DNA of 64,000 nucleotides from Candidatus Babeliales bacterium (GTDB taxonomy: Bacteria > Babelota > Babeliae > Babelales > JANWKD01): positions 224,001 through 288,000 of the forward strand of contig CAVXJH010000006.1 in the NCBI GenBank assembly GCA_963762115.1, in the 5' to 3' direction. The notes below the pieces were generated by a model. The model did not search any database. It saw only the letters and a program-made list of their open reading frames with translations, and was not told the DNA's origin. Each line of letters opens with the position of its first letter. The stretch's first letter is position 1. Position numbers and translations under genes: made by a program. Below are positions 9,862 to 44,157 of this stretch, in pieces.

Positions 9862-9873
9862 CTATTAATGTTT

Positions 9874-10659: not shown

Positions 10660-10687
10660 AAAAATTCTTTCATTAAAATAATGGTTA

Positions 10688-12570: not shown

Positions 12571-12718
12571 TATTTCCTAACAAAATAAAATAGTTATATT
12601 TGAACGTTAGAAAAAAATCATTATGAAAATCAAGAATTGTAAAAATAATATGTTTTATGATGTATTATTTAGAAGAGTATGTTCTTATAAAAATTGTTAT
12701 TATTTTTTATATTCTTCG

Positions 12719-12873
12719 GCCCTATGCGGGCAGCACAAAGGTATTGTTTGCCCAATACCTTTGATACAAGGGCACCAACGTTCCGTTGGATCGTCTCTCC
12801 CGCGCGAATATGCACCATTCCATTGTTGATGCCTTCAGCATCAAAATTCCAGGTGCACGTCGCACTACCGGAC
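12719..12873 (-). ncRNA. Putative structured non-coding RNA, family unassigned (6S RNA is one candidate)
   Basis: GC-rich island in an AT-rich intergenic region; closing stem plus three internal hairpins; G-U pairs favour the minus strand. Confidence 0.6.
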
Positions 12874-12943
12874 TAACTTATTTATAAAAAAATTTCACCA
12901 TGCAATATATTCATGCCTTGCCGGCATAAGGCAAGTTTTGATG

Positions 12944-13966: not shown

Positions 13967-14041
13967 ATGTTGTATCCCTTTTTCTAAAAAACTACTTTTG
14001 TTTGAATGTACAAAGGATTTTTGGAAAATTGATATATTTTT

Positions 14042-14809
14042 TTAGAAATTATGAGATTCTTGGGGGATTTCTGATTGAATCGGGCCTTCAGCTAATCCAC
14101 GAATGAATTGATAAATATAAGGATTATCAGATTCCCAAATGGTTTTAGCGTCACCAAAGAAGCGAATTTTTCCTTCATGCAGCAAGGCAACATAGTCGGC
14201 ATATTTAAAGATTTCTACATCATGAGAAATAATAATAGAAGTGATTTGAAATTGTTTTTGCATATCATACATGAGTTCATGTATCACGCGTGAGGTGATT
14301 GGATCAAGACCAGTTGTTGGTTCATCATAAAGAATAATTTTTGGTTGTGTCATGAGCGTGCGAGCAAGGCCAACACGTTTTCTCATACCACCCGAAATTT
14401 CAGAGGGATATTTGTTGAGAACATCTGAGTTAAGATTGACTATACTCAGTTTTTGAGTAACTAAGGGTAAAACTTCTTTCTCAGAAACATCATTTTCAAG
14501 AAGAGTGATTCCTACATTTTGAAATATTGTTAATGAATCAAGAAGTGCAGCGAATTGGAAAACATAGCCAAATTGTTTGAAAACTGCTTGGTGATCTTTT
14601 TTGCCTAATTCGGTGATATTGACATCATCAATAAAAACAGCTCCTGATGTTGGGTCAATGAGGCCAATAATCTGTTTGAGAAGAACTGATTTTCCTTCAC
14701 CAGATCTTCCGACAATGACGGTCATTTTTCCTTCAGGAATATCAAGTGAAACGCCATTAGTCACCCAACGCTCACCAAACTGTTTTTTTAAATCAACTAA
14801 TTTAATCAT
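14042..14809 (-). CDS. mlaF: MlaF/Mkl-type ABC ATP-binding protein
   Basis: GRSGEGKS, FQFAALLDSL, ISGGMRKRVGLAR and YDEPTTGLDP; follows mlaE. Confidence 0.88.
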   Translation of the reverse strand: MIKLVDLKKQFGERWVTNGVSLDIPEGKMTVIVGRSGEGKSVLLKQIIGLIDPTSGAVFIDDVNITELGKKDHQAVFKQFGYVFQFAALLDSLTIFQNVGITLLENDVSEKEVLPLVTQKLSIVNLNSDVLNKYPSEISGGMRKRVGLARTLMTQPKIILYDEPTTGLDPITSRVIHELMYDMQKQFQITSIIISHDVEIFKYADYVALLHEGKIRFFGDAKTIWESDNPYIYQFIRGLAEGPIQSEIPQESHNF

Positions 14810-14816
14810 ACTACTC

Positions 14817-15605
14817 TTAAAATAAAATTGCAGTGAGAAAGTAATTTGCCAAAATTAATAAAATTGAACCCATAACAACGCTTTGTGTTGTTGCAATACC
14901 AACACCGCGAGCGCCGCCGTTCGCAATATATCCTTTAAAGCAGCCAACCCAAGTGAGAATAAAGCCAAACCAAGCTGCTTTAATTAATCCGCTCGTGATG
15001 TCGGAAAATTCAAGATATTTTTTAATACCATGAATATATTGTTCACCGTTTAAGCCTAAAGCGTGAACGGCGATAAAATAACCACCCATAACACCAAACA
15101 TCATAGAAAAAACCGTCAGGAATGGCATAACAATGATGCCAGCAATCATGCGAGGAATGACAAGGTATTGGATGGGATTAATTGCTAGAGTTTGCAGTGC
15201 ATCAATTTGTTCGGTGATGCGCATAGTGCCGATTTCAGCAGCAATTGCCGATCCAGCGCGTCCGGTGACCATGAGGCCTGTAATAACTGGGCCTAATTCC
15301 CGTGCCATACTTAAGGCAACAACAGGGCCCACAAATTCTTGTCCGCCATAGCGCTTAAAGCCTATATAACTTTGTAATGCTAATACGGCACCAGCAAAGG
15401 TGCCCGTTAAAATAGCAATGATCCAAGAATCAACGCCAATTTCTTCTATTTGAACAAATGTTTTTCGTATCTTGAGCCGTGTTGAAAATAATGTTTTTAT
15501 CACCTGAAATAAAAAGAGAACTAATGCCCCCATTGTTACACAAAGATGCAGGATAAAACCACCTAAATAAGCAAAAAAACCCTCAATTATTGAGATTGTT
15601 TTCAT
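14817..15605 (-). CDS. mlaE: MlaE family ABC permease
   Basis: RELGPVITGLMVTGRAGSAIAAEIGTMRITEQIDAL. Confidence 0.93.
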   Translation of the reverse strand: MKTISIIEGFFAYLGGFILHLCVTMGALVLFLFQVIKTLFSTRLKIRKTFVQIEEIGVDSWIIAILTGTFAGAVLALQSYIGFKRYGGQEFVGPVVALSMARELGPVITGLMVTGRAGSAIAAEIGTMRITEQIDALQTLAINPIQYLVIPRMIAGIIVMPFLTVFSMMFGVMGGYFIAVHALGLNGEQYIHGIKKYLEFSDITSGLIKAAWFGFILTWVGCFKGYIANGGARGVGIATTQSVVMGSILLILANYFLTAILF

Positions 15606-15619
15606 TACTACAGCCTATT

Positions 15620-15937
15620 TTATTGCGGGGTTTGGGTTTTTATTGGATTCATTGGTTGTTGTATTGGGTTAGGTCGTGCTTGTGAAACATAACGTGATGA
15701 TTGATAATTATTGGTTTTCATAATTGAAAGTAACAATGATCCACCAATAAAAATCACGCCGAGTCCCCAGGTGATTTTTTGAAAAAGATCTTGGCCACCG
15801 GAACCACCAAAAAGCATTTGTGTGCCACCACCCAAATTACCGATACCCATGCTGCCTTTACCTTTTTGAACAAGAATCAGTAAAACAAGCAAAATGCATA
15901 CAAAAACATATACAGAAAGTAGCAATCCAAATAACAT
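15620..15937 (-). CDS. secG: Preprotein translocase subunit SecG
   Basis: LILVQKGKG...LFGGSGG..FQKITW; GGAG SD before ATG at 15937; follows tpiA. Confidence 0.92.
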   Translation of the reverse strand: MLFGLLLSVYVFVCILLVLLILVQKGKGSMGIGNLGGGTQMLFGGSGGQDLFQKITWGLGVIFIGGSLLLSIMKTNNYQSSRYVSQARPNPIQQPMNPIKTQTPQ

Positions 15938-15974
15938 TTTTTCTCCAGAAATTTTATAGTGAAATAACAATTAC

Positions 15975-16736
15975 TTACTCATGCAATAATGATACAACTT
16001 TTTTTAGTTCTTGGAAATCGGTACTTGCTTTCCCTAATAAAAATCCATCCAATAAGGGTATTTTTTTTAACGGTATAATTGTTTCAGATGAAACGCTGCC
16101 GCCATAGATCATAGTTGCATCAATACCATGTTCAAGGGCAATTTTCTTGACCAAATTGAGGATGTTTTCTAAGTTTTTTTCGGTGGGAATATTTCCTGAT
16201 CCAATGGCCCATCGAGGTTCATAGGCAAATAGTGCTTGTGTAGTATAATTTTTTTTTAATGTTGAGCAAAAAAGCGTAATCTGTTTGGCGATGCTGATTT
16301 CTGTTAAATTTTGTTCATATTCTTGCTTGCTTTCACCAAAACATATAATTGGTACAAGAGTATATTTTAATAAAATGGTAATTTTTTTGAGCATTGTTTC
16401 CTGATAGAGATTCCAATTTTCGTATGTTTCACTGTGGCCAATTATACAATAATGACAGCCAATTTGTTGCAATGATTGCGCACAAACTTGTCCCGTGAAT
16501 GGTCCGGATTCATGTTCAGAACAATCCTGTGCGCCCAAAAAAATAGGAAGCTCTGAGAGAATTGTTTTGCATGCCGAAAGGGACTCAAAAGAGGGGCAGA
16601 GTACAAGGGAAATATCTTTTTGTTGTAAACAATACTGGGTTAAAGATTCTTTATTGGTTTCTAGCCAGGTTATCGCTTGATTGAATGAAAAGTACATTTT
16701 CCAATTTGCTATAAGCATGTATTTTTTGTGTTGCAT
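15975..16736 (-). CDS. tpiA: Triosephosphate isomerase
   Basis: ANWKM, IIGHSE, AYEPRWAIG and YGGSV. Confidence 0.96.
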   Translation of the reverse strand: MQHKKYMLIANWKMYFSFNQAITWLETNKESLTQYCLQQKDISLVLCPSFESLSACKTILSELPIFLGAQDCSEHESGPFTGQVCAQSLQQIGCHYCIIGHSETYENWNLYQETMLKKITILLKYTLVPIICFGESKQEYEQNLTEISIAKQITLFCSTLKKNYTTQALFAYEPRWAIGSGNIPTEKNLENILNLVKKIALEHGIDATMIYGGSVSSETIIPLKKIPLLDGFLLGKASTDFQELKKVVSLLHE

Positions 16737-16900
16737 TCTAAGCTCCTTTTTTAGTAATTAAGGTAAGTGTGCAATAAAATGCAATAAGATGCCAGTTTCC
16801 CTTTTTTATTTTTATCGTATTGCAAGAACTATTGAAAAATTGATCACTATTTTCACAGTATTGATATCATAGGTCTACTTTAAAAAGGGGGAAAGTTGTT

Positions 16901-17512
16901 ATGATTTCAATGCCTATTGCATGCATTCTTGGTATGCAAATTTTGAATTTTATACATACGGCACCAGAAATTATTTTAAACACCTTTAAAGAATATCCTT
17001 ATTTGCATAGTCCTAGTCTTGAAGAAAAAAAAACGTATCTTACTTGGTTTGCAGAAAATAAAGAAGGCATACTTATTGTGGCGCATGATCAAGATGAGTT
17101 GGCTGGTTTGATCACGGGTATTCCTATGGAAGCAGTGAAAGAATATATTCCTGAAATTGATGAATTGTTTAAACAAAATAATTTGTATTTAAAAGATTGT
17201 TATTATTGTGGGGATGTTATTGTTTTGCCCGGTTATCAAAGGCAAGGCCTCTGTAGTAAAATGTTTTCTGCCTTTGAACAAAAAGTAAAAGCTTTGGGTT
17301 ATAAAACAATATCCTTGATCACCTCAGTGCGAGAAGAAGATCATCCATTAAAACCTGCACAGTATGTTGATCCAGGAAGTATTTGGCAACATTATGGTTT
17401 TAACAAAACTTCAATTATCATAAAAAATATGCAGCCAACCGTTATTGATGATTTGGGCGCTGTTGAAGAGCAAGAAAATTCCTTTGTTTTTTGGATTAAA
17501 AAATTAGAGTGA
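16901..17512 (+). CDS. GNAT family N-acetyltransferase
   Basis: VIVLPGYQRQGLCSKM; paralog of 822-1430. Confidence 0.85.
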   Translation: MISMPIACILGMQILNFIHTAPEIILNTFKEYPYLHSPSLEEKKTYLTWFAENKEGILIVAHDQDELAGLITGIPMEAVKEYIPEIDELFKQNNLYLKDCYYCGDVIVLPGYQRQGLCSKMFSAFEQKVKALGYKTISLITSVREEDHPLKPAQYVDPGSIWQHYGFNKTSIIIKNMQPTVIDDLGAVEEQENSFVFWIKKLE

Positions 17513-17543
17513 TGTTTTAAATTATACTACATAAAGGGAAATT

Positions 17544-18737
17544 ATGAATTTTTATCAACTATGTATGATTGTTGTTTTTATTTTTTATCCAATTGGTTTT
17601 TTATTTGGGGTTAATGAAGAGCTAAAAAAAAATCTGTTGCAATTAGAAAATGCCCTAGATCAATTACATACATCATTGAACATACAAAGTTATAAAAAAG
17701 AATCTGTTCAAAAAACAATACAGAAAACAGATACAGAAAAAAGTATTGAAGAATTAATTATACCATTTAATGAATCAGATTTTGAATTATTGCCTCTAGA
17801 ACTAAAAGAAAAAGTTTTATTAGAATTGGTGCCGACATCAGTAATTCAGAATGCAGACCAGTTGATTGACAAATTACAAAAATTTACGAATATTGGCCAG
17901 CCTAATAAGGCCATTAGGGATGTCTTGTCCGATGAACATTTTATGAAAAATATAATCAAAGTAATGTTTTCTAAAATTGAAAATAATAAAATAATAGAAG
18001 ATGCAATAAAAAAGATTAGAGACTTTAGAAATCCTTATGATCCAAGTTTTAGAATAAGAATACTGCCGGTTTTTCAACAAGCCCTTAAAAACGTTATGAA
18101 TAAAATTGAAATGTATAAAAAAGCGGTAGATTCGAATAGAAAAGAGGTAGAAAATCTTACAAAAGAACTTATTGAAAAAAACTATTTGAATCCTAATTTT
18201 TTTATTGATGACAATGCGTTTTTGCATAATGCTGTTAAGAAGGATTTTTCAGGATTGATAGATTATTTAATAGAAAAAGGTGCAAATATCCATGCTAAAA
18301 ATAAAAAATTTGAAACACCTTTATTAATTGCTTTAAAAAATGACCCTCAATTAGCATTAGAATTAATGAAAAAATATAAAAATGTTAGGCTTACTGATGA
18401 AAGTAGTTTTATTATTAGGCTATTGTATTTCAATAAAGATACTTATATGGAAGCAATCAAAAAATTAATTAAGAAATCAGTTAAGAGAGGTTTAAGTCCT
18501 AATGCTGACAACTTAAAGTCTGCGCAATTTCGCACTCCCCTATTGATATGGGCAATTGATATAGCTGAATCAACAGGGTCCTTAAGGGGGAATTTGGATT
18601 TAATTGAATTTTTATTAAAACGCGGTGCAGATCCTGAACTTGAGTATGTAGATCATAGTGAAAATATAGATACGCCCTTAAATTATGCTAAAGATTATCC
18701 TGATATTATTGCATTGATGAATATTTATAAAAAATAA
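17544..18737 (+). CDS. Secreted F-box-like plus ankyrin repeat protein
   Basis: FELLPLELKEKVLLEL F-box-like motif; LHNAV...LIEKGANI and TPLLIA ankyrin repeats. Confidence 0.8.
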   Translation: MNFYQLCMIVVFIFYPIGFLFGVNEELKKNLLQLENALDQLHTSLNIQSYKKESVQKTIQKTDTEKSIEELIIPFNESDFELLPLELKEKVLLELVPTSVIQNADQLIDKLQKFTNIGQPNKAIRDVLSDEHFMKNIIKVMFSKIENNKIIEDAIKKIRDFRNPYDPSFRIRILPVFQQALKNVMNKIEMYKKAVDSNRKEVENLTKELIEKNYLNPNFFIDDNAFLHNAVKKDFSGLIDYLIEKGANIHAKNKKFETPLLIALKNDPQLALELMKKYKNVRLTDESSFIIRLLYFNKDTYMEAIKKLIKKSVKRGLSPNADNLKSAQFRTPLLIWAIDIAESTGSLRGNLDLIEFLLKRGADPELEYVDHSENIDTPLNYAKDYPDIIALMNIYKK

Positions 18738-18779
18738 TTTTTTTTTAAAAAAGATGAGGATTTTGCTTTTTTATGCCTA

Positions 18780-18930
18780 ACTTTTGGCATACATTTTTTA
18801 GCATTTTTACTTTCAACTGCATGATAGACTTGACGAATTGAAACAGTGCCAAATTTGTTGTGTGCAGAAAGGCCGAGTTGTTGCCAAGGCTGAAGAATCA
18901 CGTTTCTGCCCATAATTTTTGAATGATGCA
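18780..18930 (-). pseudogene. Degenerate copy of the photolyase 3' remnant found at 20468-20632
   Basis: 18780-18829 aligns by eye with 20477-20527 (VYHAVESKNAKK vs VDHAMESLKAKK, followed by a 1-nt deletion). Confidence 0.55.
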
Positions 18931-18953
18931 AGATTTTATTGTTTTAAATTTTT

Positions 18954-19019
18954 TTGGATTAAAGATTTGAAGTAAGCCTTTGATTATTGGATTAAAGATT
19001 TGAAGTAAGCCTTTGATTA
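18954..19019. repeat. Perfect 33-bp tandem duplication
   Basis: TTGGATTAAAGATTTGAAGTAAGCCTTTGATTA occurs twice in tandem. Confidence 0.95.
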
Positions 19020-19157
19020 TAAGCTCATTTTAGATAGTTATTGGCTTTTTATAGTAATTTGACAGTATTTTCTTTTTGTATTATTATGAAAAATAAAATA
19101 TATTTTTCATATATGGTTATTTTTAAATAATATACAATAAGGGTAAAAATATAAATC

Positions 19158-29418: not shown

Positions 29419-29981
29419 AGATAAAGTAATTCTAAAGTGAATTTGATGAGTAGGAACACGTGAAGTAAAAAATATTTTCATGAGAAAAAAAGCATTAATA
29501 ACAGAAATGTCATTGCTGTATGTGTTCAGAGTTTCGGTGAATAATTTTTTACACAAAGTGGCAATCAAAGTTGAATTGTAAGTTTTTTAATTCCTTAAAC
29601 GGGTATGCCGGTTTCTTTCAACAATTCGGATGGTACTTTGCCATTCAAACCTTGATGCGGCCGATGTTCATTGTGATAGAAATTATATCCAAGAACAGCA
29701 TCTTTTAATTCATCGATTGTGTTAAAGATGGATCCTTCAATAACTTCATCATCAAAAGAACGCCAAAATCTTTCAATTTTTCCATTTGTTTGTGGTCTAT
29801 AAGGCAAAGTTCTTCGATGTTTAATCGCAAAATGAAGTAGCAATCGTTCAAAAGGATGATTTTTTAATTTTTCTGGCGTTGAACAAAACTCAGCACCATT
29901 ATCTGTCAGAGCTTCATCAAAGGTGATATTATATCGTTGGTTCATATGTAAAATAATATCCATCATAGTGATTGTGTTAAA

Positions 29982-29987
29982 AGTCAA
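29982..29987 (-). promoter_or_regulatory. -35 box TTGACT in the IS110 right end; pairs with -10 TATGTT (31175-31170) at 17-bp spacing only in the excised circle
   Basis: Circle junction reads TTGACT-TTTAACACAATCACTTG-TATGTT. Confidence 0.8.
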
Positions 29988-30013
29988 ATATTTTTTAATA
30001 AAGCTAAACAATA

Positions 30014-30955
30014 TTAAGCTTTACATAATTCACCTTTTTTTAGTAAAGAATTAGCAATCACAATAAGTTTATGCATAATAGCTACGATAGCTATTTTAAA
30101 AGGTTTTTTAGAAGTTATTAAACGATCGTAAAGTTCCTTTAATGGGAGATGATATTTAATAGTTGTTAATGCACACATATAAAGCATATTTCTTGGAATA
30201 GTTCTTCCACCTCTGATGAATTTTTTACCCTTATAACTTCCACTTTCATTCTCATAAGGACAAACACCAATGAGTGCTGATACTTTTTTATTACTTATTT
30301 GACCAAGTTCAGGAACGAATGATAATAATGTTGCAGCTGAAGTTTTGCCTATTCCTGGAATTGACTCCAAAATTTTTGATTTTGTATTTAATTTTTCATC
30401 TTGCTGAATTAAATCTTGTATCTTTAAATCAATTGATTTGATTTCGCACTCTAAGATTTTGATAAATTTCTTTATACTTGATGCATATAATGCATGAGAT
30501 GGATGTTTAGATCTTGTTTTTTCGGCAACTAAAAATTTTACCAAGTCATTTTTACGATTGACCAAAGCTTGTAATTTTTCTTGATTTTCGCTTTTGTTCA
30601 TTATCTCATAATCAGGAGAATTTTTAGAAGCAAATTCAGCAATTTTTCGAGCATCAATTTTATCCGTTTTGCTTTTGCAGCCACTAGCAACAATATAGCC
30701 TTTTATTCTTCTTGGATCGATGATCCAAAGATAATAACAATTTTTTTTTAATATTCGAGCAAGTAATTTTTCATACCCACCAGTTGCTTCGCATGCAATT
30801 TGTTCGATATCATATTTAACTAATTCTTTAATGATCTCCGTTATTCCAACTTCTGAGTTTGATACTTTTAAAGATTTTCCTATTGGATGGATATAAACAT
30901 CTAAAGTGTTTTTTGAAATATCGACACCTATAAATACTTTTGATATATTTTTCAT
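30014..30955 (-). CDS. IS110-family DEDD recombinase/transposase, intact, 313 aa
   Basis: IGVDISK, CEATG and KTDKID (DEDD); SIPGIG; catalytic Ser in NESGS. Confidence 0.96.
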   Translation of the reverse strand: MKNISKVFIGVDISKNTLDVYIHPIGKSLKVSNSEVGITEIIKELVKYDIEQIACEATGGYEKLLARILKKNCYYLWIIDPRRIKGYIVASGCKSKTDKIDARKIAEFASKNSPDYEIMNKSENQEKLQALVNRKNDLVKFLVAEKTRSKHPSHALYASSIKKFIKILECEIKSIDLKIQDLIQQDEKLNTKSKILESIPGIGKTSAATLLSFVPELGQISNKKVSALIGVCPYENESGSYKGKKFIRGGRTIPRNMLYMCALTTIKYHLPLKELYDRLITSKKPFKIAIVAIMHKLIVIANSLLKKGELCKA

Positions 30956-30960
30956 AAATA

Positions 30961-31163
30961 CCTCTGGCTTGTAGACATGCGAGATCGTATGTACTTGATA
31001 CGTCTCTAGTGATTGTTCGAGGTCATTTTTGTATAAGCTGATAGTCTCAAACTATGACACGGTCCTTTGAGACCAAGCTTGACACGAGATCTATCAGCTT
31101 CTCAAACAATTAATTTCAAAACAACTGATCATAAATTAACAAAATTTAGCTTTAAAATCATTT
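30961..31163 (-). ncRNA. Bridge RNA of the IS110 element (target-binding loop 31100-31035, donor-binding loop 31022-30961); 5' end inferred from the promoter
   Basis: Two stem/internal-loop/stem domains; loop sequences ACAATCACT and TACAAG match the donor junction, and TCATAG matches the target flank. Confidence 0.88.
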
Positions 31164-32131
31164 TGATTTAACATACAAGCAAAGGCAACATCAATTGCCT
31201 TTAAAGATTCAATTACTTCGACCCAAACTATTCTCGAAAAATCATCAATTACACCCAATACAAAATATTTCTTTTTAGGTTCAGATTGTACAATTCCCTT
31301 AGGTAGGTAATGGCAATCTATATGAGCTAATGATCCTGCAAATGTTCTCACAATCTTTCTTTTTTCCTCTTGCACTAATTTAGTTAATTTAGAAACACCA
31401 TATTTTCGTAAAGTTCGATACACTGAACTTGCAGAAAAACCCTTTTTAATCAAAGGATTTTTTTTGAGGGCCGCAGCGATAACATACCTATTTAAACCTG
31501 ATTTTCGGTATTCCAAAATTTTTTTTACAAGGCTATCATCTGCAAGTGGAAGTTCCTCAAATTTAGGTTTAGGACCACGCCTTATAGGCAGTAGAAGTTC
31601 GGGAATTCCCTGGGCCGCTTTATAGCGCCCATAAAGTTTATAAAAATTCTGGAAACAGAGCTCCCTGGCTTCAAAAAATTCTCGAACAAACCTAAATTGT
31701 GGATGCTTTTTTGCCTTAACAAGCTCATATTCTTCTACATATTTTAGCATGTACTTTATTGAATTACTAACCAAAGTAGGATACGATGTATTTATACTCA
31801 CAAAAGAACTCCTGTGTTAAAATTGTTAATATTTGCGTATTCTAATTCTAACTCTGATTTACTTTTGTGGGTATTTTTTTATTCACCGAAATTATGAACT
31901 TTTACAATTGCGAGCCAACATTGTTGGCGTGGCAACCCAGCATATAAAATGCTATTAATTTTTTCCTATAAAGTGAATTAAAAAATATTTGTTAATGTAA
32001 TAATTTTTTTAGGATTTTATTAATAAGAACATTATAATCTGGATCCCCACGGCACAATGTGCCTCGGGAAGACATTTTGATTATTTTGTTATTTTGTAAA
32101 TCATTAGTTCTGGCATAATTAGTAATATTTT

Positions 32132-32998: not shown

Positions 32999-33288
32999 AC
33001 GATCCTTTCTTCTTCCTTTTTTATCAATCTAAGCAAGCAATGGTAGTCATGTCAATAGTTATATAGATGTAATTAAAAAAATATTTTTTAGAGTAAAAAT
33101 AGGACAAGAGAGACTTCTTGTGTTATGTCAACGCTGCCTTTGCAAATAAATTGGATGGAAACTATTACTTTATTTTATTTTGGTTGGAAGGCTGTTTTAT
33201 TATTTTTTATAAATAACTTCTCTTTTGTTTTATGAGTTGTTTAGTATTGGTAAAATCAAAACAATTTTATAGAGGTAAAAAGGAAATT

Positions 33289-35421
33289 ATGAAAATAAAG
33301 AAATTAATTTTTTTATATTTTGTATTCGTAGCTAAAATTATGGCTGAATCTCATGAAGCCCGTATTGATAATTATGCCCAAGAGTCTTTGATGACTTTTT
33401 TTGAATATATATTTGATCATGAGGAAGAAAAAAATACTGAATTTTTTGATTCATTAACCAGATGTTATGATCAATTAAAAAAAGGCAATCAATCATTATG
33501 CATTGGAGATTTATTGATAGCCTCGCCATTATTGATCGCCTATTGCGATGAATATATTGTAGGTGAAAGTTATAAAAGTGTTAGTTGTGATATAGGTCCA
33601 ATCATTCTCTTGCTTAATGCTTTGAAAGCACAAATAAATCAACTTGGTCAAGATCAATTTAATTGTTGTCAACTCTTGCAATCTGATTTTCAAGAAACTT
33701 TCAGCATCTTATTTGAAGTGACTCAAAGTTTTTCTACTTTTGATGCAACCGTTGCTCTTCTGGTTGATACAATTGCAACATTAACAAATAGTATTACATC
33801 ATTTACCGGTATTCCATTGAGTATTGCAGTGTTACAAGATACTGTTGAAATGTGTTGTGATACTATTAATAGTGAATTTCAACAAACATGGACTATCCTT
33901 GGTAATACATTAAATGTGGTGAATAACTGTTGTAATTCAATTTCAAATGATTTTAATGGAACATGGACTTTTTTAAATGCAGAATTTAATCAAGTGTTTA
34001 ACATGCTTTCAACAGTAACTCTAGAAGAACTTTGTCAACCAACAGCAATCATAGCGCCCACTACTATTATATTGCCAGGTTCTTATTGTCTCGCAACTAA
34101 TATTACCGGTACCATTATTATAAATGCAAATGATGTCGTTCTTGATCTTAATAATCATACAATATTTAACGGCCAGATTATTATAAGTGGTAAAAATAAT
34201 AGTATTGTTTGCAATGGTATTTTAGATAATGCCACAACGGGTTCTTGTGCAATTTCAATAACGAACTGTTCAAATGTTATTCTTGATGCTCTCATGGTTA
34301 TAAATCCCAATGATGGTATTCAATGTGGCCAATCAACAAATATTGTTATAAAAAATTGTATTATTAGTGGTGCTCAGAAAAATGGTCTTACTATCATTAA
34401 TACTTCAACGGCATTACGCATTGAAGATTTTGAAATTATTAATACTACTTCAAATGCCATTTATATTAATGCTAATGTTCAAGATTTAACGTTACAAAAT
34501 GGGCATATAAAATTTAGTAATGGTATTCGTGCAGAAACAGGATTTTCTGCAAACAATATAAAATGCATTGATATTTTTGTAGAAGGTACCCCTATTACAC
34601 TTTTTCCTATGAATTTTTTGGGAACTTCAAGTAATTTCTTTTTTTATAATGTTCAAATAGCTGATGCCGGCCAAGGTATGCAATTTAATAATATTTCTCA
34701 AAGTTTATTTCAGAATTGTGTGGTAAAAAATATTTCAACGCCCGCATCATCTGCTGGCAGTGCATTCCGTATTGATAATGGTGTAAATAATAAATTTGAT
34801 AATTGTGTTGTGTTGTCTATGACAACAACTGGAAGCACAACTCTTGATGCTTTTAAAATGACCAATGTTAATAATCTGATTTTCAAGGAATGTTCAGTTG
34901 AAGGTATAAATGGGGTTAACGGTGTTGTAAATGGTTTTAGTAGTAATAATTCACAACGAATAACAATGCAAGATTGTGTTGTGCACAATATAACAACGAG
35001 CACACAAGCAGACGGATTTCATCTGCAGGCAACAAGTAATGTTATCATGACTGATTGTGTTGCTAATGGGTGCAGTTCAAATGGTTATTTTTCTAGTGGA
35101 GGTGCAAATATAACGGTATCAAACTGTATAGCTAATAATTGCTTGGCAGATGGATTTCATTCAGCATCTACAACAAATGTTCTCTATGAATATTGTTATA
35201 GCAACAATAATACCGGAGTTGGTTTTAATGTTGCGAATGCAATTTGTGGTAATTGTGAAAGTAGTAGAAATGTTGGTTTTGGATTTAATGGTAATTCAAG
35301 TTCGATCGCTTATAATTGTTTTGCTGGGTTAAATATTACCGGTGCCTATACGGCGATGACAGATTCTGTGCAAGCATTAGATGCTGGTTCTCCAAAGGTT
35401 GGTTATAGTATTTCGGCGTAA
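33289..35421 (+). CDS. Secreted Cys-rich coiled-coil plus right-handed beta-helix protein
   Basis: AGGA SD before ATG at 33289; CC..INSEFQQTWTIL repeats; PGSYCLATNI..VVLDLNNHTI beta-helix start. Confidence 0.85.
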   Translation: MKIKKLIFLYFVFVAKIMAESHEARIDNYAQESLMTFFEYIFDHEEEKNTEFFDSLTRCYDQLKKGNQSLCIGDLLIASPLLIAYCDEYIVGESYKSVSCDIGPIILLLNALKAQINQLGQDQFNCCQLLQSDFQETFSILFEVTQSFSTFDATVALLVDTIATLTNSITSFTGIPLSIAVLQDTVEMCCDTINSEFQQTWTILGNTLNVVNNCCNSISNDFNGTWTFLNAEFNQVFNMLSTVTLEELCQPTAIIAPTTIILPGSYCLATNITGTIIINANDVVLDLNNHTIFNGQIIISGKNNSIVCNGILDNATTGSCAISITNCSNVILDALMVINPNDGIQCGQSTNIVIKNCIISGAQKNGLTIINTSTALRIEDFEIINTTSNAIYINANVQDLTLQNGHIKFSNGIRAETGFSANNIKCIDIFVEGTPITLFPMNFLGTSSNFFFYNVQIADAGQGMQFNNISQSLFQNCVVKNISTPASSAGSAFRIDNGVNNKFDNCVVLSMTTTGSTTLDAFKMTNVNNLIFKECSVEGINGVNGVVNGFSSNNSQRITMQDCVVHNITTSTQADGFHLQATSNVIMTDCVANGCSSNGYFSSGGANITVSNCIANNCLADGFHSASTTNVLYEYCYSNNNTGVGFNVANAICGNCESSRNVGFGFNGNSSSIAYNCFAGLNITGAYTAMTDSVQALDAGSPKVGYSISA

Positions 35422-35484: not shown

Positions 35485-36762
35485 TTAATTAGCAACTATT
35501 GCAACATTAAAATATTGGCTCGTGTTTGTTAATGTTGAAAAATTATTATTGGAAGCAAAGTTAACAGGAAACTCTCCTTGAGTGAATGATACAGAATATC
35601 CTGTTGTGGTATTATTATATGATAAGTTATTAGTCATAAGATTATTGGTATTAAGTGTGGTATCAACTAATCCATATCCTTGTGAGCCGAGATTACTTGT
35701 AAAGGTGTTATTGCTAATAAGAAATCCTTGTGCTCCATCAAGAAGAACTCCATAAGCAATTCCATTGGTAAAGTTTGCAATGTTTGCTGCGCAAATATTA
35801 TTGGTAATGCCAAAATTTGAATTAGTATCTGCAAAATAAAATCCTGCAGCTAAGATGCCACCCATATTATTGGCAGTCATGCAATATTCAAAAATATTAT
35901 TGAAATTATTATGAGAATTAAATCCAATGCCACTGCCAATAGCATTTGAATTATCAAGTGCTTTGCATGATGAAAATAATGATGCTGAACATGAATTTAT
36001 TAAAAAACCACATGATGTTGCTGTTATAATCATTGAATTTGCGTTATTACCATTTGCATTACAGGCTATGAATGAACAACCGTTCGAATTCATGGCTGAT
36101 ATACCTACTCCTACTATGTTGCCCCCATTGTCATATGATTTGCAGTTATTGAATTCACAACTAGAGCATGATTCAATATATATGCCATAACCAGCATCGG
36201 CTGAATAGGTTTTATTATTACTAAAAGTGCAATTTGCTATAGTGGTATTATAGGTTGCTATCATGCGCAGTCCATATGCATTATTCATGTTAATGCCCGT
36301 ACAAGAACTGACAAGGCAATTTATAATGGATACATCATTAATTCCTGATCCGATAGGATTGCCATCTAACAATATTCCAGCTTGATTACAATTCATTATT
36401 GATAAATTTTCTAAATAAATTTGTGAACATCCGTCACTGACATAAACACCTATTCCAGTAAGATTTGTTATGGTACCAGTTCTCACCGTAACGTTAGTTA
36501 AATTAGGAGCAATAAAAACCCCATTTAATCCCGGCATAAAATTTGTTGAATTTTGGGTAAGGATAAACTCATTGATATCAAAAATAACGTTACTTGCTGT
36601 AATAGTAACAATGGTATCATTTGGGGCTTGAGGATCAGCAATAATAGACCCTCCTAAAGGGAATACTCCAGAAGAATCAATAAGGGTAACAGTGGCATTG
36701 TTTAAAAAAAATAAACTAAGCATTGCTATAAAAAATAAAAAATGTTTTTTTTGAATGTTCAT
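35485..36762 (-). CDS. Secreted right-handed beta-helix (pectin-lyase-like) protein
   Basis: Signal peptide; Asn/Cys-rich G-[FI]...C....N repeats; paralog of 36845. Confidence 0.85.
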   Translation of the reverse strand: MNIQKKHFLFFIAMLSLFFLNNATVTLIDSSGVFPLGGSIIADPQAPNDTIVTITASNVIFDINEFILTQNSTNFMPGLNGVFIAPNLTNVTVRTGTITNLTGIGVYVSDGCSQIYLENLSIMNCNQAGILLDGNPIGSGINDVSIINCLVSSCTGINMNNAYGLRMIATYNTTIANCTFSNNKTYSADAGYGIYIESCSSCEFNNCKSYDNGGNIVGVGISAMNSNGCSFIACNANGNNANSMIITATSCGFLINSCSASLFSSCKALDNSNAIGSGIGFNSHNNFNNIFEYCMTANNMGGILAAGFYFADTNSNFGITNNICAANIANFTNGIAYGVLLDGAQGFLISNNTFTSNLGSQGYGLVDTTLNTNNLMTNNLSYNNTTTGYSVSFTQGEFPVNFASNNNFSTLTNTSQYFNVAIVAN

Positions 36763-36777: not shown

Positions 36778-36815
36778 AAAAAAAGAATCGCAACAATGGT
36801 GCGATTCTTTTTTTT
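36778..36815 (-). terminator. Intrinsic terminator between the 36845 and 35485 genes
   Basis: AAAAAAAGAATCGCA-N7-TGCGATTCTTTTTTT. Confidence 0.75.
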
Positions 36816-36844: not shown

Positions 36845-38098
36845 TTATGATGTAAAATTTATGTTTGTATATTGATTTACTGTTGTTGGAAAGTCATAAA
36901 CAAAAGAAGTAACAACAGGAAATGTGCCGGTAACACGGGTAACTTGATAACCAGTTGTTGTGTTGCTAAATGAAATAGTGCCGGCAATCAAATTGGTGGT
37001 ATCAATTACTGTATCAGTCAATCCTACACCTACTAATCCAGTATTATTCGATATATTATTGTATAAAATATCGCAATTTTGTGCTGTATCAAGTAAAATA
37101 CCATACCCAGTTCCCGATGCACCACCATTATTGACACTGCTTTGGCATTTTATTAATGATGAAGAAGATTCATTATTATTTAATAAGAATCCTGCTGCAA
37201 TTGTGCCACCAATATTTTGATTTGACTCACAGATATTAAATATATTGTCGAATCCGTTGGTTGCTTGAAAGCCATATCCTTGTGCAAGAACATTATTATT
37301 ATGTTTGCTGATACAGTTATTAATTGTTGTGTGGCTGCTTGTATCAATTAAAAATCCTATTGCACGGGCAGTGCTACTTGATCTGCTGATATTATTAAGA
37401 GCAATACAATTTTCAATAATAGACCATTGTGAATTATAAATATTTATACCGACGCCTAAAGTGTTACCGCCATTGGCATTTATTTCACAATTGGTAAATC
37501 GACAAGTTGTGCACCATTCAGTACTTATACCATAGCCACTATTAGCTGTTCCTGCATCATTTCTATCAAAAGTACTATTTTGAATATCAAAATTATCACA
37601 ATAAATTAGTCGTAATCCATAAGCGGGATCACCATTTGCGCCTGTGCATGAATAAATTAAGCAATTATTTATTGAACCATCCTGAATAATGCTTGCTATG
37701 TTGCCATTAAAAAGGATTCCTGTTGCATTACAACCGATGACATTTATATTTTCAAGAGTAATATTGGTGCATCCCGCTCCTACGATAATTCCTAGGCCTG
37801 TCATTCCTTGAATTGTACCATTTCTAATAGTGATATTCGATAATCCAGGACTTACAGTAATGCCGGTAAAACCGGGAATTGGATCACTTGGGTCTTGTAA
37901 AATATTAAAGCCTCCAAAATCAAGAATTACATCACCTGATTGTATACAATATCCTGAATCATCTGGATCAGTTGGATCAAAAAGAACATCGCCACCAGGT
38001 GAGATCATTCCTGGAGAGTTAATAATAGTGCAAATTGATGTAGTGTTTATATAGTTCATTATTAGTAATAATGGTATAAGTAATATAGTTTTTTTCAT
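36845..38098 (-). CDS. Secreted right-handed beta-helix protein
   Basis: AAGGAG SD before ATG at 38098; VILDFGGFNI, ITIRNGTI and Cys/Asn ladder. Confidence 0.85.
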   Translation of the reverse strand: MKKTILLIPLLLIMNYINTTSICTIINSPGMISPGGDVLFDPTDPDDSGYCIQSGDVILDFGGFNILQDPSDPIPGFTGITVSPGLSNITIRNGTIQGMTGLGIIVGAGCTNITLENINVIGCNATGILFNGNIASIIQDGSINNCLIYSCTGANGDPAYGLRLIYCDNFDIQNSTFDRNDAGTANSGYGISTEWCTTCRFTNCEINANGGNTLGVGINIYNSQWSIIENCIALNNISRSSSTARAIGFLIDTSSHTTINNCISKHNNNVLAQGYGFQATNGFDNIFNICESNQNIGGTIAAGFLLNNNESSSSLIKCQSSVNNGGASGTGYGILLDTAQNCDILYNNISNNTGLVGVGLTDTVIDTTNLIAGTISFSNTTTGYQVTRVTGTFPVVTSFVYDFPTTVNQYTNINFTS

Positions 38099-38139: not shown

Positions 38140-41100
38140 TTAACTTCCTGCTGCTATATTGGTCCATGCTCCTGTTACAGCAGCTATATTTGAACTTGCC
38201 GGCGCTGTTGGCGTTGTAACAGAGCCTCCTGGTACGCCGGACATTTGATTTGCCGGTGTTGATCCATTACTCCAAGCAATATTTTTAGTAAATAAATTAT
38301 TCGATCCCGTGTTAACAAGAACACCAAAGGAGTTAGCAGCGCTTACTCCTATGTTATTGCTAAAGTTACATTCTTTAATTTCACAACGGAACCCACCACC
38401 AGGAGATACAAGGTTTAATCCGGCTGCAAGGCCACCTGCTCCAGTTGCGCTGTTATTTGCCGATACGCATCGCAATATTAAACAGGTACTGGTACCATTA
38501 AGAGCAAACCCTAAACAGGTAGTTGGGCCGGAATTAGCACTTGAAATACAATCGATAAACATATTATTGAAGTTGGTAGAGGTTGTTCCGGAAACATTAA
38601 ATCCATTACATATTCCACTTGTTACTCCGCCGGCATTCCAACTAACAATGCATCCCATAAACATATTATTGGTTGATGCTCCCTGAATTAAAAATCCGTT
38701 TAACGTTGCGGCATTAGGAGCATTATTTTGTAGAACTTTACAACTATTGAACATATTATTTGTGCAAGCATTTATATTGATACCACTTAAAACTGTCCCT
38801 GATGTATTGGTGCCTGAATTTCCCTCTATAATGCAATTGGAGAACATATTAAGGCTGGACGTTGTAATAAGTTGTATGCCATTGAGTGTTAAACCAATAT
38901 TATCGTATATGTTTATATCTCTAAATGTACATTCTGTGGAGCTATTTAAGTTGAGTACTGAAATTGCGTTGGTGTTGACGCCATTATTTTTAATATTGCA
39001 ACTATAGACACTACAATCGTGGCATTGAAGCAGATATACGGGGAAGTCGGCATTAACTCCTTGAGAGCAATATAATATATTACAGTTAGCGATTTCGGAA
39101 TTTAGTATTTGCCCAGCTCCTGCAGTACCGAGTAATTCTATTGCTCGCGTTGCACAAAATAAAATATCAATATTTTGAATGCTAATTCTATTACAGCCAA
39201 ATTGTATTGATACGCCTGCTCTTGTGAAGCTTTCAATCATACCATTTTTTATGGTTATATCGGTTAGCCCATTGTTAACACCTATTCCATTAACATTTGC
39301 TGTTGTATTTCCTTGGCTGATGGTGAAACATTGTAAGTCTAAAACAACGCCGGTTGTGGTAATAAGAATTGCTGTGCTGGTTGCAAGTGGACTAAAGACA
39401 ATATTGCTACCAAGTTTGTAGACGCCAGATGTTGAAATAACATAGGTAGTTCCTCCCGCTGCACCAAAATTAGCTTGTGTAATCATAGTTGGATTACATA
39501 AATTTTGCGTTATTACATTTAACACGCTGAAGGTTCCATTGAACCCAGCTGCTTCAATAGTCCACGTTTGTTGAAATTCATTATTAATGTTATTGCAGCA
39601 TGCATTAAGTGCTGAGAAGGTACCCTGATTGTTTATGCTAAGTGCGTTTAGCGCGGAGAAAGTGCCGTTAAAGCCTGCACCTAATATTGTCCATGTTTGA
39701 TTGAAATCAGTTGAGAGTGTTGCTTTTAGATCAGTAATCACACTATAAGAGAATGCATTTGTAGTGAGTGAACTGAAAGTTCCATTAAAACCTGCACCTA
39801 ATATTGTCCAGGTCTGAGCGAAATCATTCGTCATAGTATTTTTTAGATCGCTGATCACACTATATGAAAATGCATTTGCAGTTAATGAGCTGAAGGTGCC
39901 ATTGAAACCGGCAGCTAAGATTGACCATGTTTGTTGGAACTCAGAATTAATATTTGTGCAGCAGGCGTTTAATGCACTGAATGTTCCATTAAATCCTGCT
40001 CCTAAGATAGTCCACGTCTGAGCAAAATCATTCGTCATAGTATTTTTTAAATCACTGATCACACTGTAAGAAAAGTTACTTGCTGTGAGTAAACTAAATG
40101 TGCCGTTGAAACCAGCAGCTAGAATTGACCATGTTTGTTGGAACTCACTATTAATGTTTATGCAGCAGGCATTCAATGCTGAGAATGTTCCATTAAATCC
40201 TGCTCCTAAGATAGTCCACGTCTGAGCGAAATCATTAGTAATTGTATTTTTTAGATCAGCAATTGCTGAGAAAGTTCCATTTGCTTCGGTATTAATATTG
40301 TTAATTGCAGAGAAAGTACCATTAAATCCAGCACCAAGAATTGACCAGGTTTGCTGAAACTCAGAATTAATATTGGTGCAGCAGACATTCAATGCTGAGA
40401 ATGTTCCATTAAATCCTGCTCCTAAGATTGTCCATGTCTGAGCGAAATCATTGGTCATTGTATTTTTTAGATCACTGATCACACTGTAAGAGAAATTATT
40501 TGAAGTTATTGAACTAAACGTGCCATTAAATCCTGCACCTAAGATTGACCATGTTTGTTGGAATTCAGAATTTATGTTTGTGCAACATGCATTGAGTGCA
40601 CTAAAGGTGCCATTGAATCCTGCACCTAAGATTGTCCACGTCTGAGCAAAATCATTCGTTATAGTATTTTTTAGATCGCTGATCACGCTATAAGAGAAGT
40701 TACTTGCTGTAAGTAAACTAAATGTTCCATTGAAACCAGCGCCTAGAATTGTCCACGTTTGTTGGAATTCAGAATTGATGTTGGTGCAACATGCATCAAG
40801 TGCACTGAAGGTGCCGTTGAATCCTGCTCCTAAGATTGTCCAGGTCTGAGCAAAATCATTCGTTATCGTATTTTTCAGATCAGCAATAACGCTATAAGAG
40901 AAATTATTTGAAGTTATTGAACTAAACGTGCCATTAAATCCTGCACCTAAGATTGACCATGTTTGTTGGAATTCAGAATTGATGTTAGTGCAACATACAT
41001 CAAGTGCACTGAAAGTTCCATTAAATCCTGCAGCAACTGCTGAGAAAGTACCTGATAAATCAGCATCTAATTCTGCAATTGCACTGAATGTGCCATTGAA

Positions 41101-44100
41101 TCCTGCACCCAAGATTGTCCACGTCTGAGCAAAATCATTAGTCATTGTGTTCTTAAGATCTGCAATAACACTGTAAGAAAAGTTGTTCGCAGTAATTGAG
41201 CTAAACGTTCCATTGAAGCCAGCACCTAAAATTGACCATGTTTGTTGGAATTCAGAATTGATGTTGGTGCAACATTCATCAAGTGCACTAAAGGTGCCAT
41301 TGAATCCTGCACCTAAGATTGTCCATGTCTGAGCAAAATCATTAGTCATAGTATTTTTTAAATCAGCAATTGCTGAGAAAGTTCCATTTGCTTCAGTATT
41401 AATGTTGTTAATTGCGCTGAAAGTGCCGTTGAAACCAGCACCCAAGATTGACCATGTTTGTTGGAATTCAGAATTGATGTTAGTGCAGCATGCATTGAGT
41501 GCACTGAAAGTTCCATTGAACCCAGCAGCAACTGCCGAGAAAGTACCCGATAAATCAGCATCTAATTTTGCAATTGCACTGAAAGTTCCATTGAATCCTG
41601 CACCAAGAATTGACCATGTTTGTTGGAATTCAGAATTGATGTTGGTGCAACATGCATCAAGTGCACTGAATGTGCCATTGAATCCTGCTCCTAAGATTGT
41701 CCAGGTCTGAGCAAAATCATTAGTTATAGTATTTTTAAGATCGCTGATCACGCTATAAGAGAAGTTACTTGCTGTAAGTGAACTAAATGTTCCATTAAAT
41801 CCTGCGCCTAAGATTGTCCAGGTCTGAGCAAAATCATTGGTGATTGTGTTTTTAAGATCACTGATCACACTATATGAGAAATTATTTGAAGTGATTGAGC
41901 TGAAAGTTCCATTGAATCCTGCAGCTAAGATCGACCATGTTTGTTGAAACTCAGAATTGATGTTGGTGCAACATGCATTGAGTGCACTAAAGGTGCCATT
42001 GAATCCTGCACCCAATATTGTCCACGTCTGAGCAAAGTCATCAGTCATAGTATTTTTTAAATCAGCAATTGCTGAGAAAGTTCCATTTGCTTCAGTGTTA
42101 ATGTTGTTAATTGCGCTGAATGTTCCATTGAATCCTGCACCAAGAATTGACCATGTTTGTTGGAATTCAGAATTGATGTTGGTGCAACATGCATCAAGTG
42201 CACTGAATGTGCCATTGAATCCTGCTCCTAAGATTGTCCAGGTCTGAGCAAAATCATTAGTTATAGTATTTTTAAGATCGCTGATCACGCTATAAGAGAA
42301 GTTACTTGCTGTAAGTGAACTAAATGTTCCATTAAATCCTGCGCCTAAGATTGTCCAGGTCTGAGCAAAATCATTGGTGATTGTGTTTTTAAGATCACTG
42401 ATCACACTATATGAGAAATTATTTGAAGTGATTGAGCTGAAAGTTCCATTGAATCCTGCAGCTAAGATCGACCATGTTTGTTGAAACTCAGAATTGATGT
42501 TGGTGCAACATGCATTGAGTGCACTAAAGGTGCCATTGAATCCTGCACCCAATATTGTCCACGTCTGAGCAAAGTCATCAGTCATAGTATTTTTTAAATC
42601 AGCAATTGCTGAGAAAGTTCCATTTGCTTCAGTGTTAATGTTGTTAATTGCGCTGAATGTTCCATTGAATCCTGCACCAAGAATTGACCATGTTTGTTGG
42701 AATTCAGAATTGATGTTGGTGCAACATGCATCAAGTGCACTGAATGTGCCATTGAATCCTGCGTCTAAGATTGTCCATGTTTGAGCGAAATCATTGGTGA
42801 TTATGTTTTTCAGATCAGCAATGACGCTATAAGAAAAATTGCTTGCAGTTAATGAGCTGAATGTGCCATTGAAGCCTGCACCTAAGATTGACCACGTTTG
42901 TTGGAATTCAGAATTGATATTGGTGCAACATGCATTGAGTGCACTGAAAGTGCCATTGAATCCTGCACCCAAGATTGTCCATGTTTGAGCAAAGTCATCA
43001 GTGATTGTTGTTTTGAGATCGGCAAGAACGCTGAATGTTCCTGCGGCATCAGTGTTAATTTCTTCAATTACTGAGAACGTTCCATTAAAACCAGCAGCTA
43101 AGATTGACCACGTTTGTTGGAATTCAGAATTGATGTTGTTGCAACATGCATTGAGTGCACTGAAGGTGCCGTTGAATCCTGCAGCAACTGCGGAGAATGT
43201 ACCCGATAAATCAGCATCTAATTCTGCAATTGCACTAAAGGTGCCATTAAATCCTGCACCTAATATTGTCCAGGTCTGATTGAAGTCAGTTGAGATTGTT
43301 GCTTTGAGATCAGTGATAACACTGTAAGAAAAATTATTAGAGGTGATTGCGGCAATGCTTGAAAATGTTCCATTAAAACCAGCGCCTAGAATTGACCAGG
43401 TTTGTTGGAATTCAGAATTGATATTAGTGCAACAGGCATTAAGGGCGGTAAAAACTGGTGATAAATCAATTGATGCAGTTACTGTTCCAATATTAGCAAG
43501 AATGGTCCATGTTTGTTGAAAATCAGAAATTAGTTCTGTGCAACAATTTAATTGTTGTTGGCAACATTGATTAATTTGAGCCTGTAGTTGATGAATTAAT
43601 GCAACAATTTGACCTAGATCGCAGGTTGGTGCTCCGGCTAAATTGTCATGAAGATTTGCTGTTGGGCGAGGTGCTTTGAGTTGTATGTTTAATTCTTTGA
43701 TTAATTCTGGCAACGCCTCCATGAGGTCGATTAGAGGTAGCGAATAGCATTTTTCATCAATGATGCATTGCTCATAACAATTAAGAAGCCCTTGTGAAAG
43801 GTTTCCTTCTGACTCTTGTTCTAATGATTTTTGAATAATGGCATTAATAAAGATTTTGAAAGAGTCATCGATATTAATTTCTTTTGAAATAATATTATTT
43901 TCTACGTTGGTTGTTGGTTGTTGGTTGTTGGTTGTTGGTTGTTGGTTGTTGGTTGTTGGTTGTTGGTTGTTGGTTGTTGGTTGTTGGTTGTTGGTTGTTG
44001 GTTGTTGGTTGTTGGTTGTTGGTTGTTGGTTGTTGGTTGTTGGTTGTTGGTTGTTGGTTGTTGGTTGTTGGTTGGAAAATATATTTGAAAATGGCAATAA

Positions 44101-44157
44101 TATAAAAATAATTATTAAGAAAACAAAACAAATAGAATTTTTTTTGCTAAATTTCAT
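38140..44157 (-). CDS. 2005-aa secreted protein: SSR-encoded linker, long Cys-rich repeat stalk, C-terminal beta-helix
   Basis: AAGGAG SD; (NNQQPTT)n tract; dozens of F[AQ]QTW[ST]ILGAGFNGTFS units with CC pairs; beta-helix from GVYKLGSNI onward. Confidence 0.9.
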   Translation of the reverse strand: MKFSKKNSICFVFLIIIFILLPFSNIFSNQQPTTNNQQPTTNNQQPTTNNQQPTTNNQQPTTNNQQPTTNNQQPTTNNQQPTTNVENNIISKEINIDDSFKIFINAIIQKSLEQESEGNLSQGLLNCYEQCIIDEKCYSLPLIDLMEALPELIKELNIQLKAPRPTANLHDNLAGAPTCDLGQIVALIHQLQAQINQCCQQQLNCCTELISDFQQTWTILANIGTVTASIDLSPVFTALNACCTNINSEFQQTWSILGAGFNGTFSSIAAITSNNFSYSVITDLKATISTDFNQTWTILGAGFNGTFSAIAELDADLSGTFSAVAAGFNGTFSALNACCNNINSEFQQTWSILAAGFNGTFSVIEEINTDAAGTFSVLADLKTTITDDFAQTWTILGAGFNGTFSALNACCTNINSEFQQTWSILGAGFNGTFSSLTASNFSYSVIADLKNIITNDFAQTWTILDAGFNGTFSALDACCTNINSEFQQTWSILGAGFNGTFSAINNINTEANGTFSAIADLKNTMTDDFAQTWTILGAGFNGTFSALNACCTNINSEFQQTWSILAAGFNGTFSSITSNNFSYSVISDLKNTITNDFAQTWTILGAGFNGTFSSLTASNFSYSVISDLKNTITNDFAQTWTILGAGFNGTFSALDACCTNINSEFQQTWSILGAGFNGTFSAINNINTEANGTFSAIADLKNTMTDDFAQTWTILGAGFNGTFSALNACCTNINSEFQQTWSILAAGFNGTFSSITSNNFSYSVISDLKNTITNDFAQTWTILGAGFNGTFSSLTASNFSYSVISDLKNTITNDFAQTWTILGAGFNGTFSALDACCTNINSEFQQTWSILGAGFNGTFSAIAKLDADLSGTFSAVAAGFNGTFSALNACCTNINSEFQQTWSILGAGFNGTFSAINNINTEANGTFSAIADLKNTMTNDFAQTWTILGAGFNGTFSALDECCTNINSEFQQTWSILGAGFNGTFSSITANNFSYSVIADLKNTMTNDFAQTWTILGAGFNGTFSAIAELDADLSGTFSAVAAGFNGTFSALDVCCTNINSEFQQTWSILGAGFNGTFSSITSNNFSYSVIADLKNTITNDFAQTWTILGAGFNGTFSALDACCTNINSEFQQTWTILGAGFNGTFSLLTASNFSYSVISDLKNTITNDFAQTWTILGAGFNGTFSALNACCTNINSEFQQTWSILGAGFNGTFSSITSNNFSYSVISDLKNTMTNDFAQTWTILGAGFNGTFSALNVCCTNINSEFQQTWSILGAGFNGTFSAINNINTEANGTFSAIADLKNTITNDFAQTWTILGAGFNGTFSALNACCININSEFQQTWSILAAGFNGTFSLLTASNFSYSVISDLKNTMTNDFAQTWTILGAGFNGTFSALNACCTNINSEFQQTWSILAAGFNGTFSSLTANAFSYSVISDLKNTMTNDFAQTWTILGAGFNGTFSSLTTNAFSYSVITDLKATLSTDFNQTWTILGAGFNGTFSALNALSINNQGTFSALNACCNNINNEFQQTWTIEAAGFNGTFSVLNVITQNLCNPTMITQANFGAAGGTTYVISTSGVYKLGSNIVFSPLATSTAILITTTGVVLDLQCFTISQGNTTANVNGIGVNNGLTDITIKNGMIESFTRAGVSIQFGCNRISIQNIDILFCATRAIELLGTAGAGQILNSEIANCNILYCSQGVNADFPVYLLQCHDCSVYSCNIKNNGVNTNAISVLNLNSSTECTFRDINIYDNIGLTLNGIQLITTSSLNMFSNCIIEGNSGTNTSGTVLSGININACTNNMFNSCKVLQNNAPNAATLNGFLIQGASTNNMFMGCIVSWNAGGVTSGICNGFNVSGTTSTNFNNMFIDCISSANSGPTTCLGFALNGTSTCLILRCVSANNSATGAGGLAAGLNLVSPGGGFRCEIKECNFSNNIGVSAANSFGVLVNTGSNNLFTKNIAWSNGSTPANQMSGVPGGSVTTPTAPASSNIAAVTGAWTNIAAGS
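41585..42762. repeat. 537-bp-period near-exact tandem duplication (about 2.2 copies) inside the 2005-aa gene
   Basis: Blocks compared by eye (41644/42181, 42004/42541, 42124/42661) are identical at offset 537. Confidence 0.8.
43906..44073. repeat. Perfect heptanucleotide SSR (GTTGGTT)24
   Basis: 168 bp, equal to 56 codons, directly after the signal peptide of the 2005-aa gene. Confidence 0.95.

Follow-up and report, generated by a model that had tools for sequence, protein, structure and literature searches.

The locus raises a question: is a long heptanucleotide repeat at the 5' end of a giant gene a switch that turns a surface protein ON and OFF? Within the window, that is, the whole stretch of 64,000 nucleotides that was analysed, a gene of 2005 aa on the minus strand (38140-44157), the third-longest ATG-started open reading frame of the genome, encodes in this order a predicted signal peptide, the repeat, a conserved N-domain, a stalk and a beta-helix head. 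A scan for period-7 runs and translation place a perfect (CAACCAA)24 tract plus one base at 43906-44074 on the minus strand, 169 bp with 0 mismatches and with GTTGGTT as its forward-strand unit. The tract encodes residues 29-84, (NQQPTTN)8, and the leader comprises residues 1-28; the initial annotation was therefore right to place a perfect repeat of 24 units directly behind the signal-peptide codons. Hydropathy and the hydrophobic leaders of homologues predict a Sec signal peptide at residues 1-28 (44074-44157, minus strand), no other part of the protein being strongly hydrophobic, and point to cleavage after Ser28; a ribosome-binding-site-like motif, AGGAGAGG, precedes it in the upstream sequence. 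The tract thus begins at the predicted first mature residue, between the predicted signal peptide and the conserved N-domain, and 1921 codons of the gene remain 3' of it.

The product depends on the number of units. Computed alleles of 0 to 30 units encode 1949 to 2019 aa whenever the count is a multiple of three, and 33 to 96 aa otherwise, confirming the proposal that only such counts stay in frame and that 24 units is ON. Frame translation places the stops of both shifted frames at 43895-43905 (minus strand), at most 4 codons beyond the end of the tract; one of them, the open reading frame at 43895-44131, closes with QRRK-stop just past the tract, as had been noticed at the outset, and the third frame stops immediately. 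Downstream of the leader, codon 146 provides the next ATG in frame. The locus combines several of the properties by which contingency loci are recognized: a long perfect simple sequence repeat (SSR), a unit not divisible by three, a 5' coding position and shifted frames that truncate the product.

The tract is not a chance occurrence, since other period-7 runs reach only 18 bp genome-wide and at most 17 bp in 30 shuffles of the window. No other perfect repeat longer than 36 bp exists in the 1.53-Mb genome when periods of 1 to 30 are scanned, the runner-up at any of these periods measuring 36 bp, and the GTTGGTT/CAACCAA heptamer class has no second occurrence elsewhere in the same genome. On the mRNA strand the tract is 57% A and 43% C, and is free of G. 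Its position favours, weakly, the selection of a switch, because codons 20-60 of leader-bearing ORFs make up about 3.7% of the genome and the same codons in ORFs of at least 800 aa 0.2%, as against a non-coding fraction of about 17%; these shares derive from rough ORF calling and describe a single event with a target set chosen post hoc. The main competing explanation is that of a nearly neutral, young expansion in a tolerant spacer, where the repeat forms a length-variable polar linker, OFF alleles are deleterious and purged, and no adaptive switch exists. In accordance with it, the spacer after the leader is unconserved and varies by tens of residues in length across the family, and unrelated proteins, some of them labelled cyanobacterial or Bacteroidota, also contain NQQPTT linkers in frame. 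Structural reasons make protein termini tolerant of SSR expansion (PMC3315296), and heptamers are generally over-represented (PMC4692102). The known NQQPTT linkers, however, are imperfect, whereas here 24 units follow one another without mismatch, and the non-coding fraction offered safer sites. Moreover, at least four exact or five degenerate heptamer units are found in 1 of the 261 genomes of the order, a set with many fragmented assemblies that are prone to lose repeats. With the heptamer class absent from the rest of this genome and from the other 260, a background of such expansions is missing. We therefore hold the linker explanation to be a serious one, yet unlikely.

What would such a switch control? 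The N-domain (residues 85-165; 43663-43905, minus strand) is conserved and mostly helical, has no Pfam, NCBIfam or fold match and no phage match that we found, and ends in the family motif K/R-x-x-R-P (43663-43677). This motif is conserved right behind the N-domain family-wide (RAPRP 19 and KAPRP 19 among 114, with many variants); as a speculation, it may be a processing site at which the repeat-bearing part is stripped off the mature fibre. The stalk (residues about 166-1550; 39508-43662, minus strand) contains 36 FxQTW units with a spacing of mostly 29, 39 or 43 aa, is predicted to be helical and shows a hydrophobic period of 3.6, consistent with a coiled coil. Regular Cys-Cys pairs and 55 N-x-S/T motifs, mostly FNGTF, run along it, the whole giant protein having 19 such pairs and 64 such motifs. 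Inter-chain disulfide rings, or glycosylation of the N-x-S/T motifs by the host, may be offered as ideas; glycosylation of these motifs by the bacterium itself is unsupported, as an STT3 oligosaccharyltransferase was not found in the genome, which is 95% complete. An exact 641-bp match with a period of 537 bp (41585-42762) marks a very recent internal duplication within the stalk, suggesting that recombination may also alter stalk length. The model of N-domain and stalk is of low confidence (mean pLDDT 51) and has no fold match; an Atlas match of 0.76 is a lead only.

The C-terminal 450 aa (38143-39501, minus strand) were modelled with higher confidence (mean pLDDT 83.9, pTM 0.81) and form a predicted right-handed parallel beta-helix, the type of receptor-binding domain known from trimeric tailspike-like fibres. 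The best fold match of the head model is AlgE4 (2pyg; Z 36.4, rmsd 2.5, 323 aligned), and further matches include phi29 gp12 (3gq7; Z 34.3) and PfbA of S. pneumoniae (3zpp; Z 28.9). With CBA120 TSP3 (5w6f) these right-handed beta-helices span Z 29-36, yet identities to such tailspikes and adhesins are 8-18%, a common fold shows no function, and neither the N-domain nor the Cys-Cys stalk has a match. Pfam matches on the giant protein (Mga HTH, B1, YfbU and others) were rejected as repeat artefacts, with 0 significant stretches.

The adhesins BadA and YadA have a signal peptide, a long repetitive helical stalk of variable length and a binding-type head. The giant protein resembles autotransporter adhesins, both classical and trimeric ones such as BadA, in its signal peptide, long helical stalk and binding-type head; unlike them, it has no translocator barrel or YadA-anchor domain detectable by Pfam, and its C-terminus is modelled as the beta-helix head. 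The one autotransporter barrel of the genome (PF03797) lies elsewhere, on contig C5. A leader, no second membrane segment, a beta-helix head, and a genome that encodes BamA and two secretins would be compatible with surface exposure. Judged by this architecture only, the giant protein is likely an exported, surface-exposed stalk-and-beta-helix fibre that binds a host or another surface, and its head appears to be an exchangeable one.

The family to which the giant protein belongs is present in 13 of the 261 genomes of the order, with 184 representatives at 50% identity and 12 members in this genome. A paralogue of 1924 aa on contig C3 shares the stalk (66-82% DNA identity), and its head has no match to that of the giant gene at E 1e-8. 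In G001, a genome of the same genus, six genes encode a head of this type (36-46% identity); in our genome the giant protein is the sole fibre that carries it. A second member in the window (33232-35421, plus strand; 729 aa) has the N-domain, a short stalk and a beta-helix and converges on the two beta-helix genes that follow the giant gene, an inverted repeat lying between the stops. Contig C3 of this genome bears four tandem short members of 286-296 aa (299120-302737), and G001 a similar group of four family frames of 310-345 aa (locus L024). Tandem arrays of larger extent occur in G001 (C1:824-843 kb, loci L021-L022; four giant genes of 1549-1589 aa) and in G037 (L097-L099; eight matches over about 40 kb), and in locus L030 of G048 two family genes flank a set of four small beta-helix genes. 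At the breaks of broken family genes in these relatives (L030 of G048, 4687-19000; L024, 7647-8024) no SSR is visible.

Comparison of orthologues, which the initial annotation had proposed as a check, sets the tract apart from its family. We compared 71 distinct family 5' ends taken from this genome and from the retrieved loci; apart from that of the giant gene, none has a repeat longer than 16 bp, and in particular the syntenic G001 genes behind glyA (843 and 867 aa; locus L023) have no tract. Among the best 150 representatives, 114 match the N-domain, and the repeat is found in one of these only, P0045, a protein of a second ENA record, being absent in 113. A tree of 60 N-domains (74 rows at E 1e-25 and a coverage filter, duplicates dropped and repeat residues trimmed) places the repeat on one terminal branch. 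By these sequence comparisons the tract is a young gain in a single lineage. As the other 70 family 5' ends are without it, it is not a conserved contingency locus, retention of the tract in orthologues or paralogues being a usual though not indispensable mark of such loci, and the absence of a comparable tract in relatives gives no indication that a switch has been under selection for long; a terminal-branch gain suits the neutral-linker explanation as well. A full-length homologue search (1102-3509 aa) gave 34 matches that were set aside, as they were either repeat-driven or unrelated for other reasons. Neither the 2005-aa protein in its exact form nor its version starting at Met146 was found in the protein collection searched, and the junction pattern of the giant gene was not found in viral contigs.

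Orthologue comparison did yield a second allele of the tract. P0045, from a contig of 122,349 bp, has 9 units encoding 21 repeat residues, versus 56 here, and apart from repeat length shows 0 substitutions against the giant protein over 337 aa (protein sequence only). The two records therefore differ by 15 units, that is, 105 bp or 35 residues, so tract length differs between records and P0045 provides the best evidence for length change; given 24 versus 9 units, the tract likely slips. P0045 leaves the frame by one base at residue 337, which marks the record as error-prone, and in another ENA record a different gene of the strain is split, with no substitutions (P0095/P0192). This split and the one-base shift suggest that records of this kind are long-read assemblies, prone to error, from the same strain or one that is near-clonal. 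Could the tract be real and its length fixed in nature, the difference between 24 and 9 units, or 24 itself, being an assembly or base-calling error? The errors just named speak for it, as does a chimeric-looking contig end in our own assembly: contig C7:1-5000 has a GC content of 56-68% against about 35% elsewhere, with presumably rpoB-like frames, so recognized from their translation, joined to the end of a 2677-aa ORF. Likewise, when the two flanks, each with roughly half the tract attached, were compared with the contigs of four sequencing runs, none of the matches listed bridges a tract boundary, and these are uninformative on length; the pieces listed comprise short identical contigs of up to 404 bp in one run (X1) and a relative, mostly 90-95% alike, in another (X2).

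Other observations speak against such an error. The genome (1,530,897 bp, 7 contigs, no N, 95% complete) has 100%-identical repeats of 1217 bp resolved inside contigs, and the exact 641-bp duplication is resolved within the giant gene, which suggests an assembly from long reads that would span the tract and argues against a short-read loop artefact. The flanks of the tract share one reading frame in both records. A loss of 105 bp far exceeds typical per-read miscounts. Slippage of long SSRs whose unit is not a triplet occurs in ORFs at about 1e-3 per division, and instability is to be expected of a perfect tract of 24 units (PMC11475388). An error behind the two lengths is consequently improbable. 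Other repeats and mobile elements were encountered during this survey. In the window, an IS110 transposase identified by Pfam (30014-30955) is nested in another transposase-like gene (29595-31801), which is presumably IS481-like by its motif, and near-identical copies of both exist elsewhere in the genome; a perfect two-copy 33-bp tandem repeat is intergenic at 18954-19020. Contig C6:186995-187030 has three perfect copies of a 12-bp unit holding TGTGGATAA, a DnaA-box-like word, and is possibly the replication origin region.

Both alleles, 24 and 9, are multiples of three and therefore ON. Under free slippage this would happen with a probability of 1/9, rising to as much as 1/3 if the open state of the first allele is what drew attention to it, and an assembly consensus reports the majority allele only. 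The purged-linker explanation predicts such a pair, and variation in multiples of three only, which the initial annotation had named as refuting a switch, fits both alleles, a sample of two being too small to decide. No OFF product appears among the 120 of 263 matches listed from proteins of 30-1101 aa, nor in a search of 46-147-aa proteins. Two in-frame alleles 35 residues apart would also suit a rheostat, in which tract length tunes expression, export or reach of the fibre: the C-rich, G-free mRNA-strand tract could load Rho, and in H. influenzae the upstream heptamers of hmw1A and hmw2A tune expression (PMC2651432). The hmw tracts lie in promoters, though, and the tract described here lies in a coding region where the unit breaks the frame two times in three, leaving the rheostat very improbable.

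Switches of a similar build are known. H. influenzae hgp genes undergo ON/OFF phase variation through a CCAA repeat (PMC9341677). Our locus resembles them: the gene encodes an exported protein with paralogues, its 5' coding region holds an SSR that is C/A-rich and not built of triplets, and a frameshift means OFF; by analogy, the locus is built like an hgp-type switch. The hgp genes encode haemoglobin-binding outer-membrane proteins, have a tetramer unit kept across paralogues and strains, and their switching was measured, whereas here one of the 12 paralogues has the tract, and the proteins searched yielded no OFF allele. The heptamer itself has counterparts in H. influenzae. P0286, a protein named Hgp precursor, has an Hgp-type leader followed directly by a CAACCAA-class heptamer, in place of the usual CCAA tetramer, and an early stop; at another H. 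influenzae locus, 13 database products exit the heptamer in two different frames. An AACAACC tract, a rotation of CAACCAA, lies inside the ORF of an HI1369 homologue, is variable between strains and is frameshifted in one (PMC2651432); that gene encodes a putative TonB-dependent iron channel in another phylum, and its phase variation was likewise proposed from genomes. We infer that the heptamer arose independently in this lineage and in H. influenzae. N. meningitidis pglE varies in phase through a heptanucleotide repeat (PMC7157529); it shares with our gene the length of the unit and differs in encoding a pilin glycosyltransferase, not an exported fibre.

Taken together, the tract, a recent gain of a single lineage, probably acts, at about 0.6, as an ON/OFF switch through strand slippage, and the fibre that it would control likely binds the host. 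The proposal of a switch thus stands in part: position, truncating frames, 9 versus 24 units and the heptamer of H. influenzae support it; the ON state of both alleles and the lack of an OFF product among the proteins searched do not. Replication slippage would add or drop single 7-nt units at a high rate, and as loops of 7 nt would escape MutS, the population would be a mixture of ON and OFF cells that convert into one another. Loss of mismatch repair as a cause was rejected, the MutS- and MutL-family frames (867 and 624 aa) being open. In OFF cells the one fibre of the genome that bears this head type would be missing, while the paralogue, whose stalk is similar and whose head differs, would remain. 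Rho could in these cells also silence beta-helix gene 1 (36845-38098, minus strand; 417 aa, hydrophobic leader), which matches Pfam Beta_helix and is 29% identical to the head of the giant protein. The initial annotation had suggested polarity on the two downstream genes. For gene 1 this is plausible from the sequence, because it starts 41 nt after the giant gene, the gap is without a hairpin, and rho is present in the window. For beta-helix gene 2 (35485-36762, minus strand; 425 aa, hydrophobic leader, Pfam Beta_helix) polarity is doubtful, since RNAfold predicts between the two genes a hairpin ending in T7 (36778-36814, minus strand), a possible intrinsic terminator; a consensus terminator scan did not flag this hairpin and found no site excess over shuffles.

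Is the putative switch relevant to the life of the organism? The phylum parasitises protists (PMC4776705, PMC6561590, PMC12172432), the bacterium is likely a parasite of protists as well, and the host range of the phylum is described as undefined (PMC12172432). The mechanism is known; in Babelota we found no earlier report of phase variation or of this fibre family among the openly available papers searched. PMC4776705, PMC6561590 and PMC12172432 gave no match for phase variation or a beta-helix, and a paper on phase variation that names the phylum does so in an unrelated context. A wider reading, which we offer as doubtful, is that a tailspike-like fibre repertoire of Babeliales chooses the protist host, and that in this strain the single-copy head has come under a Haemophilus-style heptamer switch that hedges between protist hosts or phages, caught soon after its origin. 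As part of the same tentative reading, the repertoire would follow one plan: a leader, the N-domain, K/R-x-x-R-P, a Cys-Cys coiled-coil stalk of variable length and an exchangeable beta-helix head. A working switch would make this uncharacterised fibre family, found in 13 of 261 genomes, a candidate host-recognition factor. Descriptions of SSR phase variation come mainly from animal pathogens, where it is regarded as immune evasion, and protist hosts have no adaptive immunity. Should the switch work, the same device, down to the heptamer of H. influenzae, arises under host-range, grazing or phage selection; and, as the relatives are without a tract, this case could illustrate the origin of a contingency locus.
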